A DNA stretch of 29,204 nucleotides, from contig JAKAEG010000001.1 of NCBI GenBank assembly GCA_021819985.1, positions 1 to 29,204 of the forward strand, in the 5' to 3' direction. Under the pieces are notes generated by a model, which worked only from the letters and a program-made list of their open reading frames with translations, did no database searches and was not told the origin of the DNA. Numbering within the stretch: the stretch's first letter is position 1; each line of letters opens with the position of its first letter. A program made the position numbers and the translations under genes. This stretch comes from Nitrospirota bacterium (lineage in GTDB: Bacteria > Nitrospirota > Thermodesulfovibrionia > Thermodesulfovibrionales > JdFR-88). Of this stretch, positions 2 to 18,045 are shown piece after piece.

Positions 2-508
2 CAAAGGCCGCCGGCCGAAGTCAATCTTCTTATGAAATTCCTGGAATTCTTTCTCCGCGATGAGATGTACGAGTTCAAGAAACTGGACATTTCTTTCCGG
101 GCGATCGGGGATTTAAGCAAACTGCCCGAAATCGTGCGCAGGATGGTGGCGCAGGCCGAGGATTTGACAGCCGGCTGTAAAGGAATGGCTCTCACCATCG
201 CCATCAGTTATGGCGGCAAGGATGAGATATTGCGGGCGGTGAAGAAAGCGATTGCGTTCGGCAGTGAGCCAAACATGATAAACGAAGAGGCTTTCTCAGG
301 ATTTCTGGACACTGCAGGACTACCGGAGCCGGACCTCATCATAAGGACATCAGGCGAAAAAAGGACCAGCAACTTTCTTGTCTGGCAGTCGGCGCATACG
401 CAGTTTTACTTTACGGACACGCTATGGCCGGATTTCGGCAGAGAGCAACTCCTCCAGGCGCTCGGGAATTATCGGGTGCGAGCTAAGAGTTTTGGGGCGA
501 AGATATGA
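2..508 (+). CDS. uppS: Isoprenyl transferase (undecaprenyl diphosphate synthase family), 5' end outside window
   Basis: Motifs AISYGGKDEI, PDLIIRTSGEKRTSNFLVWQ, WPDF; frame stays open to the window edge (QRPPAEVNLLM, matching the RPxxEVxxLM motif). Confidence 0.92.
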   Translation, partial: QRPPAEVNLLMKFLEFFLRDEMYEFKKLDISFRAIGDLSKLPEIVRRMVAQAEDLTAGCKGMALTIAISYGGKDEILRAVKKAIAFGSEPNMINEEAFSGFLDTAGLPEPDLIIRTSGEKRTSNFLVWQSAHTQFYFTDTLWPDFGREQLLQALGNYRVRAKSFGAKI

Positions 509-8628: not shown

Positions 8629-8874
8629 CTAGAGTCCTTCGAATATCTTCGACAATGATACACCCAAGGCCTTAGCCAGTTTTCTGAGAGAAGTAATCGT
8701 TGGATTTCTCTCGCCTCTTTCTATGCCCCCAATATAATTTCTGTGCAGGCCGGACTGTTCGGCTAACTCTTCTTGCGAGAGGCCAGTCGCCATTCTTAAG
8801 CCTCTAAGCTGCTTTCCCAGCCTTCTTAAGAAGGTATCCATAAGTGGATTATTTTGTGGCTGGGCTGAATTCAT
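8629..8874 (-). CDS. XRE-family HTH regulator, R-M controller (C) protein-like
   Basis: [40 protein letters not shown], close to the C.AhdI/C.Esp1396I pattern; start could be 8841. Confidence 0.9.
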
Positions 8875-8879
8875 GTCTA

Positions 8880-8907
8880 CACACTATGAGTGTGATTCTG
8901 TTATAAT
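8880..8907 (+). promoter_or_regulatory. C-box-like operator CACACT-ATG-AGTGTG (8880-8894) plus extended -10 TGnTATAAT (8899-8907)
   Basis: Perfect 6-bp inverted repeat 5 nt from the XRE ATG; consensus extended -10. Confidence 0.7.
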
Positions 8908-8955
8908 TGCATCTGGCAAAGAAGAGAAAACGGAACCGGAAAGGAGGATATTGAA

Positions 8956-9375
8956 ATTTTCCAGACGGGGGAACACCGGAAAAATATCCTGCTTGTGGAT
9001 GACAAAAAGGACGTCCTGCAACCTCTGGCGGAAGGGCTGAGGGTTTCCGGAGAATTCGACGTATTCACGGCCGAAAACGGCAGGAAGGCGCTGGAGATAT
9101 TCAAGTCCGGCCGCAAAGTGGATGTTCTTGTTACCGATATAGAAATGCCAGTGATGGACGGGTTCGAGCTTCTGGCTCAAGTAAAAAAGGATTACCCTGA
9201 TACACCAGCCATTGTGCTTACCGGCCACATAACCCACAAAATTAAAGAGCAGCTCAAGGCAATCGGGGACTTTGTCTGTATCCAGAAACCTGTCAGTTTC
9301 TGGGAACTCCGGCGGAAGATAATAGATGAACTTCGTATTCACTCCGCACGGGGAGAAAATAAAAAAACGAAATAG
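8956..9375 (+). CDS. Stand-alone receiver (REC) protein, paralogue of 1036..1467; probable ATT start
   Basis: HRKNILLVDD is encoded in frame upstream of the first GTG (8995); SD AAGGAGG 8941-8947 lies 8 nt before in-frame ATT 8956; VTDIEMP, VLTG, IQKP intact. Confidence 0.8.
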   Translation: MFQTGEHRKNILLVDDKKDVLQPLAEGLRVSGEFDVFTAENGRKALEIFKSGRKVDVLVTDIEMPVMDGFELLAQVKKDYPDTPAIVLTGHITHKIKEQLKAIGDFVCIQKPVSFWELRRKIIDELRIHSARGENKKTK

Positions 9376-9382
9376 CCCAAAT

Positions 9383-9775
9383 ATGGGGAAATTGAAAATG
9401 CTCAAAAGCGAGAAGGCTACGGGTGAGCTTATCAGGCAGATGAGAAAATCTTCCGGCATGTCGCAAATGCAGCTTGCGGAGAAGGTCGGGATTTCATATC
9501 AGCAGGTCCAGAAATACGAGAAAGGGGTAAACAGGCTCACCGTTCCAAGGATGAAGCAGATATCATGGGCGCTGGGAGTGCCCGCAAGTCTTTTCCTCGA
9601 TGAAGGAAACCTGCTTATGCCCGGGCAGCAAAAAGAAACGGGGCGGAATTGCCTTTTGGACGACGAGGCTAGGCTGCTCATGCTGTTCAGAAGAATCCGC
9701 AGCAGAAAGCTAAAACATGGCTTCATAGAGATGCTTGAGGATGTTGTAAATATATCGAATGGCAAGAAAAACTGA
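9383..9775 (+). CDS. XRE-family HTH regulator
   Basis: GMSQMQLAEKVGISYQQVQKYEKGVNRL; start 9383 or 9398. Confidence 0.88.
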   Translation: MGKLKMLKSEKATGELIRQMRKSSGMSQMQLAEKVGISYQQVQKYEKGVNRLTVPRMKQISWALGVPASLFLDEGNLLMPGQQKETGRNCLLDDEARLLMLFRRIRSRKLKHGFIEMLEDVVNISNGKKN

Positions 9776-9776
9776 A

Positions 9777-10097
9777 ATGCCGATTACTCGCGCCAGATCC
9801 ATTCTTTCGATTGTCTTGATTCTATTTATCCTGGGCGTGGCGGTGGTGGCGGGAGCGGCCAATTCTTTACAGAAAAGTCCCGAGTATCAGACCGCGGGGG
9901 CCCATAACCAATCCGAGGACGCCATGTTATCTGATATAAAACACCGTTGCGCTGCTGACCTCGGCCCGGGCTACTCCTTGCAGGTGCAAAAGACGTATAA
10001 TGGCGGCTATCTGTTCATTTGCGCCCAAAAGGATGATAACGCAAAAGGAATGCTGTATCCACGGCTTGTTCCGTCAGAAGCGCAAAAGCCCTTTTGA
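9777..10097 (+). CDS. Small exported hypothetical protein
   Basis: Basic N-terminus plus hydrophobic SILSIVLILFILGVAVVAGAA signal/TM; two Cys; ATG 1 nt after the XRE stop. Confidence 0.6.
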   Translation: MPITRARSILSIVLILFILGVAVVAGAANSLQKSPEYQTAGAHNQSEDAMLSDIKHRCAADLGPGYSLQVQKTYNGGYLFICAQKDDNAKGMLYPRLVPSEAQKPF

Positions 10098-10111
10098 TTC
10101 ACGGGCTATTT

Positions 10112-11497
10112 TTATTTCTGTATCTTCGGTCGCACCTCCTCGATCTCCCTTATCCTCCCTTTCTTCATCTCCTCAAAATATGACACGGTTTCCCCGAAGG
10201 CCTCGGCGTTGAAGGGCGTGTAGAAAGAGGAGAGTTCCTTGCCGTCCTCCATCTGGACGATGAATGGTCCGCCGAAATAGCCGTCCTTTATGAGCCCGCG
10301 CGAGATGGCGTCCTTCTCTCGTCGAAGGTTGCAGACGATTGAGTAGAGGATATTTCTCTTAAGCTCCCGGTCCGAGTCCATGAGGGCGACATCAGGATTA
10401 CCCTTGCCGAGCTTCTTGGCCGCCTCTTCGAGCACCCCGGCCTGAAAGTACACATGTCCGTCCGGCATCGAGAAGGCGCTCCACCGCTGGCCGTCCAGGC
10501 GGTTGATATAAGGTTTCAGCTCCGCCAGGAACTTTTCGGCATCGAACCAGGGAAGAGGGACTTCCTTCAGCTTGACCTTCTCTTTTTCTTTCTTGGCATG
10601 GGTGATAAAGATACTGTCTTTTTCGGTCGGGCCCGCTTCCGCTTTCGGGGCCGACTGAAGAGGCTCCTCCGGTCTGCCAGGCTCCGGACCGGACCCGCCC
10701 TCAGTAGGGCGCTCCTGGATGTTACTGGCAATCTCCGTTCGCCTGGCATCCTGGTCCGCTTCCTTGAGCTTTTCTCCAAGCAGCCCCTTTGGGTACCTGT
10801 GGTGGTCGACAATGGCTTTATTGACATCGTCCTTATAGGGAAGCCCTGCGTAGCCCGGGAGGCCCTCCAGAATCGTTACGCTTATGAGTGGGTGGTCTCC
10901 CAGGGAGTAAAGGGTTTTTCTAAAAGAGGGGAGTTTGCCCAAGTCATGCCCCAGGGCGGCAATCAGAACCTTGGGAAGCATCGCGACGGATCCCTTGAAG
11001 GCTTTTATCATCTCTTCCGCCACGTCCAGGGTATGCCGGTAGAGTTTTACCCCGGCCAGGACGTCATAGGCGTTTTTGTCTGTGAAGCCTTCGGCTTCGC
11101 CCTTACCATTCACAACGGATGGGCAATCCCCCTCCCGATCGAGAAGTTGAAGAATTTCCCTGACCACGGTGCCGGCGGGAGTGGCGGAAAAGGTCCGCTC
11201 TTTTACGTACTCATCATAAAAATCCCGTATCTCCGGATGATCGAAGGCGAGGTCTTCGGCCTCCGCGGGCGGTGGCTGCCCGGCCTGGTTCCTCCAGAGG
11301 CCGGCAAGTTGCTCCAGGGATATCTCGGCGTTTCTGTGCCGGGACCAGATGGTGGACAGGGTCTCCAGGGCGATTTCCTTCTTGCCGCCCTTTTTCCGGG
11401 AGGGAAGGCCCTGTCCGGGCCCGGCGGACGGGCAAAGCGTCTTCCAGAGCCCGAAAGCGGCCGCCGCGATCCCAACGATCAGGGCCAGCTCAAACAT
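10112..11497 (-). CDS. HD-domain protein with N-terminal TM, possible MOBH/TraI_2-like relaxase
   Basis: H...HD...H...HH...D set (RHTLDV, LGHDLGK, DHP, DHH, EADQ); N-terminal MFELALIVGIAAAAFGLW; ATG 11497 overlaps the T4CP stop. Confidence 0.7.
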   Translation of the reverse strand: MFELALIVGIAAAAFGLWKTLCPSAGPGQGLPSRKKGGKKEIALETLSTIWSRHRNAEISLEQLAGLWRNQAGQPPPAEAEDLAFDHPEIRDFYDEYVKERTFSATPAGTVVREILQLLDREGDCPSVVNGKGEAEGFTDKNAYDVLAGVKLYRHTLDVAEEMIKAFKGSVAMLPKVLIAALGHDLGKLPSFRKTLYSLGDHPLISVTILEGLPGYAGLPYKDDVNKAIVDHHRYPKGLLGEKLKEADQDARRTEIASNIQERPTEGGSGPEPGRPEEPLQSAPKAEAGPTEKDSIFITHAKKEKEKVKLKEVPLPWFDAEKFLAELKPYINRLDGQRWSAFSMPDGHVYFQAGVLEEAAKKLGKGNPDVALMDSDRELKRNILYSIVCNLRREKDAISRGLIKDGYFGGPFIVQMEDGKELSSFYTPFNAEAFGETVSYFEEMKKGRIREIEEVRPKIQK

Positions 11498-12869
11498 CGG
11501 GCCGCCTGTCCCTCTGTGGACCGTCAATTTCCGCCATTCCCTCCACCGCGCTTATACTGGGAAGCTTGATGTGAACATATGGGTTCGAGACGTCCTCGGT
11601 CTTTCCTACGTAAGCGCCAGAGTAGCCCATCATGTAGAATTTTCTCGCGGGGAGATTAAGCACGTCCTGCGGCTTTAGCACCGGCTCTTCCATCTGCCTC
11701 ACTGTCATGCCGCCGCCCACACTCAGTATCGGCGCATATTTCGCCTTTTCCCCGAAATGGTCCGCTACGTATTGGGCCGTCTTCGCATCAGGGACCCTCA
11801 TGAAGAGCTTTGTATTGGTGTTGTCCAGTATCACGTTTGCGTAGTCCTCGCCCAGGGCCGCGTAAAGCTGGCTTACGGACTGGGAAAAACCGTGCACCCA
11901 CACGCCTGCCCCGCCGGCCTTGGCGAAGAGGTCGTCTATGCCGTAGTAAAGGACGTTCTGGGCCTCGTCTATGTAGAGACAAAGGGGCGGCGTGACCTTT
12001 CTGCCGGAGGCGAACACCCGCCCCACAAAGCTCTGTATCATCGAGATCACCACCTTCCCCAGGGTGTAAGCGGCCCTCCTGGTGATGAGAGAGGCAAGCT
12101 GGACGATCATAATCACCCGTTTGCCCTCTTCCAGCCGCTTTAAAAACCTGTTTTCATCGGCGCGGCCTATGATCTTCCCGATGTTGCCGGAGGTAAGCTC
12201 CATGAGGGCCACGCGCAGCGAGGAGGACACCTTACCGTAGTAATCCTGCGGGGAGTCGAGGATTTTCTGCATGTCGGAGGAAAGCTGTCTGGCCTCATCG
12301 GAGTCTATCGAGTCGATCTCGGCCTTGAGGTTTTCCAAGTCGGTATGGGAAATCCGGTTTTTTACGTCATTCAGGTTGAAGAGGGGCGGTTTCCCCTCGT
12401 TCTTGGCCAGAAGGATGAGACCCTGGACCACGACAAGACTTACCTCGTAAGCGACATTGTAGAAAAATTTCTCCTTGCCTACTTCGACGCCAGAGACTAT
12501 GTGCCCCACCAGCTCCTCGGGCATGAAATAATAGGCCAGCGGGTCTATGATGGCGCTGTAGGCCGGAAATACCGGCGTGACGAGCATAAGCTCCTCCTGT
12601 CGGCCCTCCTCGAAGGCCGCCTGGACTATCTTGGAGAAAATCTCAGCGTCTCCCTTGGGATCTATGAGGACCACGCTGTGGCCCTTTCTTATGTCCTGCT
12701 CGGCCATGTTCTCTATGACTCGGGTCTTGCCCACGCGGGTGGTCCCGAAGCACCAGAGGTGGCCGTTACGATGCGCGTCCGGGATGGCTATCCGGATATT
12801 GCGGGTGGGATCGGCGAGTTTCTGGCCCCGGCCGAGTATGAGCTGGCTCTCCTTATCTCCCCCGGACAA
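11490..12869 (-). CDS. traD: Type IV coupling protein (TraD/VirD4-like ATPase) without N-terminal TM
   Basis: HLWCFGTTRVGKT (Walker A), VLIDPKGD, LYIDEA (Walker B), FSQSVSQL, NTNTKLFMRV. Confidence 0.82.
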   Translation of the reverse strand: MSGGDKESQLILGRGQKLADPTRNIRIAIPDAHRNGHLWCFGTTRVGKTRVIENMAEQDIRKGHSVVLIDPKGDAEIFSKIVQAAFEEGRQEELMLVTPVFPAYSAIIDPLAYYFMPEELVGHIVSGVEVGKEKFFYNVAYEVSLVVVQGLILLAKNEGKPPLFNLNDVKNRISHTDLENLKAEIDSIDSDEARQLSSDMQKILDSPQDYYGKVSSSLRVALMELTSGNIGKIIGRADENRFLKRLEEGKRVIMIVQLASLITRRAAYTLGKVVISMIQSFVGRVFASGRKVTPPLCLYIDEAQNVLYYGIDDLFAKAGGAGVWVHGFSQSVSQLYAALGEDYANVILDNTNTKLFMRVPDAKTAQYVADHFGEKAKYAPILSVGGGMTVRQMEEPVLKPQDVLNLPARKFYMMGYSGAYVGKTEDVSNPYVHIKLPSISAVEGMAEIDGPQRDRRPDV

Positions 12870-13596
12870 AATGGACGATGATCCTTTCCTTAAGCTCCCC
12901 CGAGACCGCTTTTATGCACTCCCCGGGGACCCTGCCCTCCGCCTCGACCAGGCTGAAAACCCCTGCGGCCCTTTTCACGCACCTGACCCTTATGGCCAGG
13001 AGCCTGTCCGAAAGCTCCCTCTGGAAAAGACCCTCCGTGAGGCTCCGCGATGTCCTGCTCAAGGAGACTTTCAAGACCGGGACGCGGCCGTTTGATGATG
13101 GCGTTACACTCGATACGTAGAAGTTAAGATAGTCCCCGGTCCGGTAAAGGCCCCTTTCCTTGGGCGTCTGATGCTCTTTTTCGCATACCCCGACCACAAG
13201 CCAACCGGCGCTGCCGTCCAGCTCGACGAATATGCGCTCCTCGAATACCGCGGCGACATGCCCGCCGATGATCCCGCCTGTGAGGTAGCGGAGTTTTCCG
13301 TAGCCCCGGACCGTGGCCTCCCTTTGAAGGGCGGAGACGATATCGTATTTGATCGCCCGAAGGACGTTCTTTTTAAGGCGCTCCATGGGGAGCAGTTCAA
13401 CCCTGTTTTCCCTGAAGACGTAGATTTCGCATCCCTCTCTGGTCAGCATGCACTCCACATCCAGGCGGAAGATGCCCGACAGAGTGCCGGATATGGACCT
13501 CTCGATGGCCGCTTTCGCCTCGTCGCAGGGAAGCTCGTACTTATCGGCGACGGCCCGGAGGTCAGCGCCGCCTGAAATATCTTTTAAAAACCGCAT
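12853..13596 (-). CDS. Truncated NusA-like protein (NTD, S1, partial KH1)
   Basis: Motifs align by eye with NusA: AVADKYELP, GGIIGGHVAAV, RTGD, LSRT...LFQRE, KRAAG, IKAVSGELKERI; SD AAGGAGG before ATG 13596. Confidence 0.75.
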   Translation of the reverse strand: MRFLKDISGGADLRAVADKYELPCDEAKAAIERSISGTLSGIFRLDVECMLTREGCEIYVFRENRVELLPMERLKKNVLRAIKYDIVSALQREATVRGYGKLRYLTGGIIGGHVAAVFEERIFVELDGSAGWLVVGVCEKEHQTPKERGLYRTGDYLNFYVSSVTPSSNGRVPVLKVSLSRTSRSLTEGLFQRELSDRLLAIRVRCVKRAAGVFSLVEAEGRVPGECIKAVSGELKERIIVHFVRGR

Positions 13597-13990
13597 AGAC
13601 CCTCCTTGCGTACCGCGCTCTTTTTTCGTTGTCCGAGGCGTTGTAGCAGCCCACAGCCTCCCATGTATAGCCGTACCTCCGGACGCACCGGGCCAGTATC
13701 CAGGCGCCTGCTTTGACATTAGTGCAGGGATTCCCAAGAGACCGCCAGACGCCCATGCCAAGCGTCGGGGCCCAGGCTGAGTTGATCTGCATGAGACCGT
13801 AATCGTATGTGCCGTTTTGGTTCCAGTTGACCGCCTGGGGGGTGAAATCAGACTCGACCTTTGCGATCGACCAAAGGAGCCGGGGAGATACGCCGTACTT
13901 CGCCCCCGCGGCCTCGAAGCAGAAGGCGTAGGCCGGGGCGGCGGATGAAAGAATGAGGATCAAGGCAATAAGGGCCCTTTTTATATCCAT
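13562..13990 (-). CDS. Lytic transglycosylase (SLT; VirB1/TrbN/IagB-like) with signal peptide
   Basis: IAKVES (catalytic Glu), GLMQIN, NVKAGAWIL, AVGCYNA; signal ending AYA-F. Confidence 0.92.
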   Translation of the reverse strand: MDIKRALIALILILSSAAPAYAFCFEAAGAKYGVSPRLLWSIAKVESDFTPQAVNWNQNGTYDYGLMQINSAWAPTLGMGVWRSLGNPCTNVKAGAWILARCVRRYGYTWEAVGCYNASDNEKRARYARRVYAVFKRYFRRR

Positions 13991-14199
13991 CTATAGTGAT
14001 ATAGGCAGGGGGCAACTTTAAGCGGGCGCGTTCAGTTCAAGACGCAAGGTTTTCACCGAGAAAAGATGCTTTTGATGGCCGGGTCGGGGTTCGGAGTCCC
14101 TTCAACTTCGCAGGGTACTTACTCTGCTTCTGATGCTAAGATTTGCCCTGAAATCTGTTGTGAGTCTATTCTTTGCAAAATGCAGTGTACGACTAGAAA

Positions 14200-14470: not shown

Positions 14471-14484
14471 CAGAATCGAGTTTA

Positions 14485-14680
14485 GGTTTACAGGTGCCCT
14501 AAAGGGCATTAAAGGGAATCCCGTGGAAATCGGGAGCGGTCCCGCCGCTGTAACCGGGGACAAACCTTCAGTAAAGCCACTGTGCCTTATAAAAGGCATG
14601 GGAAGGCGAAGGTGAGGATGAACCGGGAGCCAGAAGACCTGCCTGTGAGCAATTAGAGAAGGAACTTCTCGCGGAAGAAG
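14485..14680 (+). promoter_or_regulatory. Cobalamin riboswitch 1
   Basis: CAGGTGC, AAAGGGAA, GTGGAAATC, CCCGCCGCTGT, GCCACTG 14576, GGGAAGG 14600, GAGCCAGAAGACCTGCC 14627; P13 CTTCT-CGCGGA-AGAAG 14665-14680. Confidence 0.95.
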
Positions 14681-14731: not shown

Positions 14732-14773
14732 AATCCCGATGGCTGTCACCGGCCATCGGGATTTTTGTTTTTT
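14732..14773 (+). terminator. Intrinsic terminator of riboswitch 1 expression platform
   Basis: Perfect 12-bp stem AATCCCGATGGC/GCCATCGGGATT followed by a T tract. Confidence 0.88.
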
Positions 14774-17817: not shown

Positions 17818-17847
17818 TATCTAAATTAAGCCTGCCGTGGATTTTCC

Positions 17848-18045
17848 TTGCGCAGGCGCAGATGGATGTGGAAGAGGGGTGAAAATCCCCCGCTGCCCCG
17901 CAGCCGTGATGGGAACGAAAGCCCGATACGCCACTGTCAAGCGTAAGACCTTGATGGGAAGGCGGGCAAGTAGATGGGCGTTCATTGGGTGCCCTTGCCC
18001 TCAGCCGGAAGACCTGTCTGTCTGAAAAAATACCTCGCGGGAGGG
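17848..18045 (+). promoter_or_regulatory. Cobalamin riboswitch 2 (translational type)
   Basis: GGGGTGAAAATCCCC, GCTGCCCCGCAGC, GCCACTG 17930, GGGAAGG 17956, CAGCCGGAAGACCTG 18002; P13 CCTC-GCGG-GAGG contains the btuB SD. Confidence 0.93.

Follow-up and report, generated by a model that had tools for sequence, protein, structure and literature searches.

The 29,204-nt stretch of DNA that opens contig JAKAEG010000001.1 of a Nitrospirota bacterium (assembly GCA_021819985.1), referred to here in its full length as the window, carries a gene whose product is a true but very remote homolog of the housekeeping factor NusA. This NusA-like gene is the second member of a translationally coupled operon of four genes, the others encoding a lytic transglycosylase (SLT), a TraD-type type IV coupling ATPase (T4CP) and an HD-domain protein. 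We assign a probability of about one half (0.5) to the view that the NusA-like protein is a NusA-derived, nucleic-acid-binding accessory subunit of a conjugative DNA-processing (Dtr-type) module, and not a general termination factor. Several features jointly point to such a function in the processing of conjugative DNA: gone are the head of the N-terminal domain (NTD), the contact that KH1 and KH2 of NusA make with the omega subunit of RNA polymerase (RNAP), and the GxxG loop; the NTD is variable; and the gene is invariably linked to those of the ATPase and the HD protein, even where no long operon is present.

A remote and reduced NusA homolog

The kinship with NusA escapes simple searches. 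The protein has no match in Pfam, PHROGs and PADLOC, and a phmmer search of the PDB with the single sequence recovered nothing relevant; the homology appeared with NCBIfam, with profiles and with folds only. The single sequence matches the NCBIfam model for NusA, TIGR01953, over residues 70-213 (E 4.6e-10), with a score of 39 bits that lies far under the equivalog cut-off of 253.4 bits. A profile of close relatives retrieved NusA chains only from the PDB (E 0.02), and a profile of 60 diverse family members retrieved almost only NusA chains, the best of which, 4mtn (E 4.9e-12), aligns through its NusA residues 12-247 with profile positions 7-240. When the family was compared by hhalign with eight housekeeping NusA proteins, a probability of 98.8% (E 8.9e-17) was obtained, with family columns 3-242 corresponding to NusA residues 7-276, at a sequence identity between the NusA-like protein and housekeeping NusA of 16-18%. 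An earlier note on this DNA, made from its letters alone, had proposed a truncated, mobile-element-encoded NusA paralog on the basis of blocks aligned by hand; these blocks were reproduced by both HMMER and hhalign.

Structure comparisons lead to the same assignment. With the AF2 model of the protein (pLDDT 75) as the query, Foldseek placed NusA in the top 18 positions among PDB entries and in the top 24 among those of Swiss-Prot, the best E values ranging from 1e-13 to 2e-15. VIA-align superimposed NTD and S1 on those of NusA over 164-169 aa with a root-mean-square deviation (rmsd) of 3.0-3.8 (5lm7_A: 169 aa, rmsd 3.8), and extended over 222 aa and all three domains for 4mtn. ESM-Atlas models compared with full-length NusA reached TM-scores of 0.80-0.84, normalized by the query, over a range that starts at residue 1 or 5 and ends at residue 247. 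Because the NTD and KH1 align with NusA as well, the protein is not merely a generic S1-domain protein, and we reject this explanation.

The genome from which the window stems encodes its own housekeeping NusA, a protein of 375 aa on contig C335 that scores 403 bits on TIGR01953. In a phylogenetic tree, the eight housekeeping NusA proteins are split from the NusA-like family by a branch of 2.75 substitutions per site with 100/100 support, in keeping with the earlier claim of a paralog distinct from the chromosomal NusA; as the NusA sequences in this tree come from one order only, it shows the separation of the family and not its origin.

Close homologs of the NusA-like protein (33 sequences of 237-254 aa and 58-90% identity) share its N-terminus and length; all of them are annotated as hypothetical, and they derive from metagenome-assembled genomes named Nitrospiraceae or Desulfobacteraceae. 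When 1.84 billion representatives were scanned exhaustively with HMMER, the family grew to 151 clusters at 50% identity, nearly all with proteins of 220-290 aa that match from end to end. Members were encountered in genomes named Nitrospiraceae, in Thermodesulfobacteriota and on a Campylobacter plasmid. The ESM Atlas holds further clusters of short proteins with a NusA_N domain (142-277 aa), for which Actinomycetota, Cyanobacteriota and Bacillota are the commonest phyla. Truncated NusA-like proteins may hence be more widespread than the family described here, although some of them could be fragments.

A comparison of the domains defines what this family has kept and what it has given up (Table 1). 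The body of the NTD is recovered by hhalign in columns 3-105, and its helices occupy residues 10-19, 24-43 and 76-105 of the model. Opposite NusA residues 60-90, hhalign reveals a deletion of about 30 residues, missed in the earlier note, that removes helix α3 and the head (α3, β3, β4); the AF2 model, too, is without helix α3. The S1 domain superimposes on that of NusA with an rmsd of 1.9-2.6 in the structure alignment. The family retains the NusA motifs LSR(T), R-x-x-G and EL-x-ERI: Arg181 in the LSR(T) motif at the end of S1 is invariant, and Arg209, Gly212 and Glu237 in the remnant of KH1 are invariant or nearly so, and identical to their NusA counterparts.

In all 60 members inspected, the KH1 segment is fixed at 14 residues, compared with about 26 in NusA, so that about 12 residues, including the first helix, are deleted; none of the 60 possesses a GxxG motif, while the loops of the host NusA read GMKG and GKKG. 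KH2 is absent, since the protein ends after KH1 and the alignment stops at NusA residue 276. Both of these losses had been recognized in the earlier note. The lack of AR domains, also listed there, is real but not distinctive, because the 375-aa host NusA is devoid of them as well. What is left of the KH region is the best preserved part of the protein: mean entropy per domain rises from 2.28 bits in the KH remnant to 2.49 bits in S1 and 2.81 bits in the NTD. The remnant is uniformly basic, with an isoelectric point of 8.6-11.0 as compared with 5.1 for KH1 of NusA, and the protein as a whole has a median isoelectric point of 9.4. S1 and the KH remnant are thus its most conserved and also its most basic parts.

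Table 1. Positions in the window of the NusA-like gene, its domains and the genes encoded with it.
Feature	Position	Strand	Remarks
NusA-like gene	12853..13596	(-)	Intact open reading frame; 247 aa plus stop
Shine-Dalgarno sequence AAGGAGG	13601..13607	(-)	4 nt ahead of the NusA-like ATG, within the end of the SLT gene
NTD, residues 1-105	13282..13596	(-)	Helices α1, α2, α4 and three strands retained; head gone; least conserved domain
Predicted contact surface for the flap-tip helix	NTD residues 12-19, 31, 74-90		From complex model
S1 (OB-fold) domain, residues 106-183	13048..13281	(-)	Motif C-x4-Q-x-P-x-E-R; ends in NusA-like LSR(T)
KH1 remnant, residues 184-247	12856..13047	(-)	Helix and GxxG loop deleted; most conserved domain
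Lytic transglycosylase (SLT; IagB/VirB1-like)	13562..13990	(-)	First gene of the operon; N-terminal signal-type hydrophobic segment
TraD-type type IV coupling ATPase (T4CP)	11490..12869	(-)	Without N-terminal transmembrane domain
HD-domain protein	10112..11497	(-)	N-terminal transmembrane helix; candidate relaxase/nuclease
3.9-kb cassette	10111..14052		Recurs at 81-88% nucleotide identity in differing contexts

A four-gene module of conjugative elements

The NusA-like gene overlaps the preceding SLT gene by 35 nt and the following T4CP gene by 17 nt, and the latter overlaps the HD gene by 8 nt. The order SLT, NusA-like, T4CP, HD recurs in all 15 loci for which enough sequence is available, across NusA-like proteins whose identity ranges from 87% down to about 21%; the NusA-like protein is hence encoded in one operon with a coupling ATPase and a candidate nicking enzyme in 15 of 15 cases. 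Three of these loci have an inserted gene or block within the module. At L042 (G120:C4, 10495-17070), about 6.5 kb are inserted between the NusA-like gene and T4CP. The plasmid of Campylobacter upsaliensis has an extra open reading frame at the same place: of its two candidates, the 269-aa frame adjoining T4CP was rejected as a family member (hhalign probability 0.5%), and the 221-aa frame ahead of it belongs to the family (96.3%).

The T4CP matches TIGR03743 with an E value of 1.7e-48, the match beginning at about model position 165, and scores best against SXT_TraD and TOL_TraD. It starts about 35 residues ahead of Walker A, has no transmembrane segment and carries a TraG-D_C domain. Translation of the HD protein probably begins with the ATG at 11497; the alternative open-reading-frame call is a TTG at 11527. 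Its family shares the invariant residues H165, H194-D195-x-x-K198, Y207, H212, H242-H243 and D258, and its model consists of a transmembrane helix, the HD domain, a disordered linker and a C-terminal α/β domain. The latter (residues 326-467) resembles a cluster in the AlphaFold DB named 'large polyvalent protein-associated domain' (E 4.1e-4) and has a weak likeness to the Rep helicase of SaPIbov1 (Z 7.8).

That the gene resides on mobile elements, as the earlier note had maintained, is borne out by base composition, spread and context. G+C content is 55-59% in the cassette versus 44-50% in its flanks. The cassette occurs in 4 of 40 close relatives, one of which has two to three copies, and a phylum-wide sample of 401 genomes contained it in 4. 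In related genomes its copies have unrelated surroundings, lie often at contig ends, and in one case sit beside a tyrosine recombinase. This recombinase gene (L024, 8416-9255) is located directly upstream of the cassette; beyond it follow genes for a 1326-aa protein without Pfam match and for two zinc-ribbon proteins.

The module is also present on conjugative plasmids and within an F-type tra cluster. It is found on pIAE1 of Trichlorobacter lovleyi, on pSD of Geobacter anodireducens, which is typed MPF_F, and on the C. upsaliensis plasmid, which encodes F-type TraU and TrbC; genes for UvrD-type helicases lie nearby on pIAE1 and on the Campylobacter plasmid. MOB-suite detected no known relaxase on any of these three plasmids, and on pSD and the Campylobacter plasmid the ATPase of the module is the only clear coupling protein. 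In genome G139 (L043, G139:C7, 7079-18286), a gene for the surface-exclusion protein TraT is placed between the SLT and NusA-like genes, and TraK and TraB follow immediately after the module, which here heads an F-type tra cluster; a gene for a Gp3-like recombination directionality factor is located upstream. The genome of the window itself encodes F-type TraE, TraK, TraB/TrbI-like, TraV and TraC on contig C83 (L033, 988-7588), and on contig C43 (L034, 6326-8759) a second T4CP-HD pair at which the contig ends at the position expected for the NusA-like gene.

Between cassette copies, the dN/dS ratio is 0.15-0.21 for the NusA-like gene, 0.13-0.21 for SLT, 0.13-0.20 for HD and 0.04-0.11 for T4CP; all four genes of the module are therefore under purifying selection. 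Sequence divergence of the NusA-like protein keeps pace with that of the HD protein and far exceeds that of T4CP, a pattern to be expected of element-specific recognition parts.

These data bear directly on the idea that the protein is a decaying or selfish, dominant-negative fragment of NusA that disturbs termination in the host in general, including at the adjacent cobalamin riboswitches. The protein is truncated relative to NusA, and 880 bp separate its gene from a cobalamin riboswitch with a terminator-like hairpin. However, dN/dS values of 0.15-0.21 and an architecture fixed across 151 clusters show that a function is maintained, and the riboswitch neighborhood is not conserved, as most copies are located elsewhere. 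In a genome of the same genus, synteny begins at the riboswitch (14488) and similarity stops there on the side of the cassette. None of the observations supports a dominant-negative effect on host termination or an influence on the riboswitches, both of which the earlier note had suggested. We consider this explanation so improbable that it deserves hardly any credence.

The surroundings of the cassette in the window comprise two cobalamin riboswitches on the forward strand, one at 14475-14660 (121.6 bits) ahead of cbiMNQO and one at 17822-18035 (69.3 bits) ahead of an operon with a TonB-dependent receptor gene; the terminator-like hairpin with its T-run (14732-14763) follows the first of them. 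To the left of the cassette, genes for an XRE regulator and a receiver-domain protein (8629-9813) form a pair with 76% identity to its counterpart on the related contig L001 (14182-15367), where the DNA between pair and cassette differs; a paralogous receiver is encoded at 1006-1467. No promoter or terminator signal above chance was detected in or beside the cassette.

DNA processing and the question of RNA polymerase

The mechanism that we envisage for a DNA-processing role starts from the basic and conserved pair of S1 and KH remnant, which would hold a single-stranded nucleic acid. This substrate could be the transfer strand, once melted or nicked, or else a transcript made at the transfer origin. 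The variable NTD would dock to a protein partner, so that the NusA-like protein could present its substrate to the HD nuclease and hand it over to the coupling ATPase. With a presumably periplasmic SLT and a soluble ATPase, the HD nuclease, which is predicted to be membrane-anchored, would be the only relaxase candidate of the module. The 3.9-kb cassette of the window might accordingly be a mobilization module that makes use of an F-type mating apparatus whose genes reside elsewhere in the genome. MOBH-type HD relaxases cut oriT DNA in its single-stranded state and form no stable covalent intermediate; by what route the DNA then arrives at the coupling protein has yet to be explained (PMC6736028, PMC12857230). 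We infer that the NusA-like protein binds nucleic acid, that it is a partner of the ATPase and the nuclease, and that the HD protein acts as a relaxase.

A number of observations weigh against this proposal. The KH remnant has no canonical GxxG binding loop, and neither the cassette nor its vicinity showed an oriT-like inverted repeat above chance. The HD protein has no Pfam match to TraI_2 (PF07514) or TraI_2_C and no HHH motif among its conserved residues, and Foldseek searches of the PDB with its model returned generic HD hydrolases only. In VIA-align, its best scores went to YhaM (Z 15.1), to Cas3-HD (Z 9.3) and to the MOBH3 structure 3KQ5 (Z 9.2), and this last match, which extends over 244 aa at an rmsd as high as 16.6, is the only link to MOBH proteins. 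Finally, the retained flap-tip pocket and the modeled complex with the RNAP flap described below fit a role in transcription equally well. The HD protein could not be confirmed as a bona fide MOBH relaxase, even though its modeled architecture of transmembrane helix, HD domain, linker and C-terminal domain echoes that of MOBH relaxases (PMC6736028).

In the complex of NusA with RNAP, the flap-tip helix inserts into a pocket formed by helices α1, α2 and α4, the NTD head binds the C-terminal domain of the α subunit (αCTD), omega is bound between KH1 and KH2, and AR2 contacts the αCTD; residues R104 and K111 of NusA are essential for pause enhancement (PMC5842316). Since its head and the pair of KH domains are lost, the NusA-like protein keeps only the flap-tip pocket of the first three of these contacts; the fourth, that of AR2 with the αCTD, is absent in the host NusA too. 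Position R104 of NusA corresponds to K76 of the NusA-like protein (K/R in 41 of 60 members) and K111 to K83 (K/R in 30 of 60), and conservation is somewhat higher at the positions predicted to contact the flap than in the remainder of the NTD (mean entropies of 2.40 and 2.92 bits, respectively).

The flap contact raised in the earlier note was approached by complex prediction with residues 1-185 of the NusA-like protein. The RpoB flap was taken from the relative G006, likewise a carrier of the module, because a contig end truncates the rpoB gene of the host ahead of the flap-coding part. The resulting score of 0.58, against 0.01 for the best control, is classed as 'weak support': of 78 solved complexes, 51 attain the mark for this score, as do 2 of 108 mismatched pairs, and those that attain it with scores of 0.60 or less comprise only 5 of the 78 solved complexes but all 4 of the mismatches that pass (of 180). 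In the predicted interface, the NTD residues given in Table 1 face AEEKLL-AIF-KA of the flap, and thus the canonical pocket receives the hydrophobic face of the flap-tip helix. As NusA-RNAP complexes have already been solved, the score may reflect memory of these structures, that is, likeness and not binding. In view of the retained pocket, the aligned lysines and the modeled interface, RNAP binding by the NusA-like protein is plausible but putative.

This leads to the alternative of an element-specific elongation or antitermination factor, whose NTD would bind the flap-tip helix instead of, or alongside, the host NusA to allow read-through of the tra operon of the element. This is the idea of the earlier note, restricted to the genes of the element itself. 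Apart from the pocket, the aligned lysines, the conservation of the contact positions and the modeled complex, the position of the gene at the head of the F-type tra cluster in G139 speaks in its favor. Yet the NTD is the least conserved domain of the protein although the flap-tip helix of RpoB is nearly invariant, and the head that binds the αCTD, KH2 with the omega contact and the RNA-binding GxxG loop are all gone. Furthermore, purifying selection acts in four-gene cassettes of 3.9 kb that lack a long operon, and the gene is always tied to those of the ATPase and the HD protein, not to promoters or regulators. We regard such a factor as a serious alternative, though on the unlikely side.

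The two roles could be combined if the NusA-like protein bridged transcribing RNAP and the conjugative DNA-processing machinery. With its NTD on the flap-tip helix of an RNAP that transcribes through the transfer origin, the protein would use S1 and the KH remnant to retain the transcript or the displaced strand, and it would recruit the HD nuclease, together with the ATPase lacking its transmembrane domain, to the transcription bubble, so that nicking and strand loading would be coupled to transcription. Such a bridge, which we view as an unlikely and speculative arrangement, would, if true, explain how HD-type relaxases that act on single-stranded DNA only and form no covalent intermediate get and deliver their substrate.

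The enzymatic neighbors of the NusA-like protein lend themselves to yet another interpretation, in which the module is a defense cassette against plasmids or phages with a HerA/FtsK-like ATPase, a Cas3-like HD nuclease and the NusA-like protein as the nucleic-acid sensor. PADLOC matched the ATPase to mad8 (E 1.1e-12) and the HD protein to Cas3-HD (E 6.9e-6), the HD fold is near to nuclease-type HD proteins (see the Z scores above), and bare cassettes sit among HicAB, PIN, AbiEi and HEPN genes. PADLOC, however, has no match for SLT or the NusA-like protein, and no described system is matched by all components. The ATPase is far nearer to conjugative TraD, as evidenced by its match to TIGR03743; a secreted lytic transglycosylase fits the assembly of a secretion apparatus; and the module provides the sole candidates for coupling protein and relaxase on two plasmids with F-type transfer genes and is embedded in a tra cluster. 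A function in defense is very unlikely in our opinion.

Relation to known systems and implications

Compared with housekeeping NusA, the NusA-like protein shares homology in NTD, S1 and KH1, the order of these domains, the motifs named above and the α1/α2/α4 pocket. It differs through the missing NTD head, KH1 helix, GxxG and KH2, through a KH remnant that is basic instead of acidic, and through its accessory nature, with a patchy distribution and a gene that belongs to a conjugation module.

A functional comparison can be drawn with the accessory factors of relaxosomes, such as TraM of the F plasmid, which binds the C-terminus of TraD (Pfam PF12696, 'TraM recognition site of TraD and TraG'). 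Like these, the NusA-like protein is small and cytoplasmic, is encoded beside a coupling ATPase and a putative nicking enzyme and evolves quickly along with the nuclease, and the neighboring ATPase carries TraG-D_C. The known accessory factors are mostly ribbon-helix-helix or helix-turn-helix proteins; the fold of the NusA-like protein is unrelated, and its DNA binding and its docking to the ATPase are putative.

The MOBH modules formed by TraI and TraD in SXT/R391, R27 and the gonococcal genetic island (PMC6736028) resemble the present one in several respects. The ATPase is closest to SXT_TraD and TOL_TraD, and the HD neighbor has the HD-x-x-K motif, an invariant tyrosine, a disordered linker, a C-terminal globular domain and an N-terminal membrane-associating helix. 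It lacks, on the other hand, TraI_2, TraI_2_C and HHH, and the coupling protein of the module has no transmembrane domain. A NusA-like component of MOBH systems was not found in the literature searched.

'Hodor' megaplasmids lack a canonical relaxase and possess a short MOBH-like HD nuclease and a separate helicase (bioRxiv, PMC12934698). They have in common with the elements described here that conjugative plasmids devoid of a canonical relaxase encode a short HD nuclease, with UvrD-type helicases near the module on pIAE1 and the Campylobacter plasmid. The Hodor nucleases, in contrast to the HD protein of the module, for which hmmscan gave no such match, match TIGR03760 by HHsearch. The word NusA is absent from the text of the Hodor preprint (PMC12934698) and from a review of type IV secretion systems, and full-text literature searches retrieved no description of a bacterial NusA paralog tied to conjugation.

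For an elongation factor that serves the element, NusG offers the analogy. NusG has many specialized paralogs on mobile elements, and those of the RfaH type are operon-specific elongation factors for long operons. The idea of a Nus-factor paralog dedicated to the genes of its own element is the same; NusG is, however, not of the NusA family, and the NusA-like protein is not known to have an ops-like recruitment site or to act in antitermination.

In conclusion, the NusA-like protein is probably a new kind of helper in DNA transfer that may still dock onto RNAP. Its family is sizeable, with 151 clusters, and entirely unannotated. The module marks a class of conjugative and mobilizable elements that are labeled 'non-mobilizable' by present typing schemes, which miss both the relaxase and its NusA-like partner; recognition of the module would improve the prediction of plasmid mobility. 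At the same time, it makes accessible to experiment the question of how DNA passes to the coupling protein from HD-type relaxases that form no covalent intermediate. Should the NusA-like protein really bind RNAP, a Nus-factor fold would for the first time be connected to the transfer of DNA.

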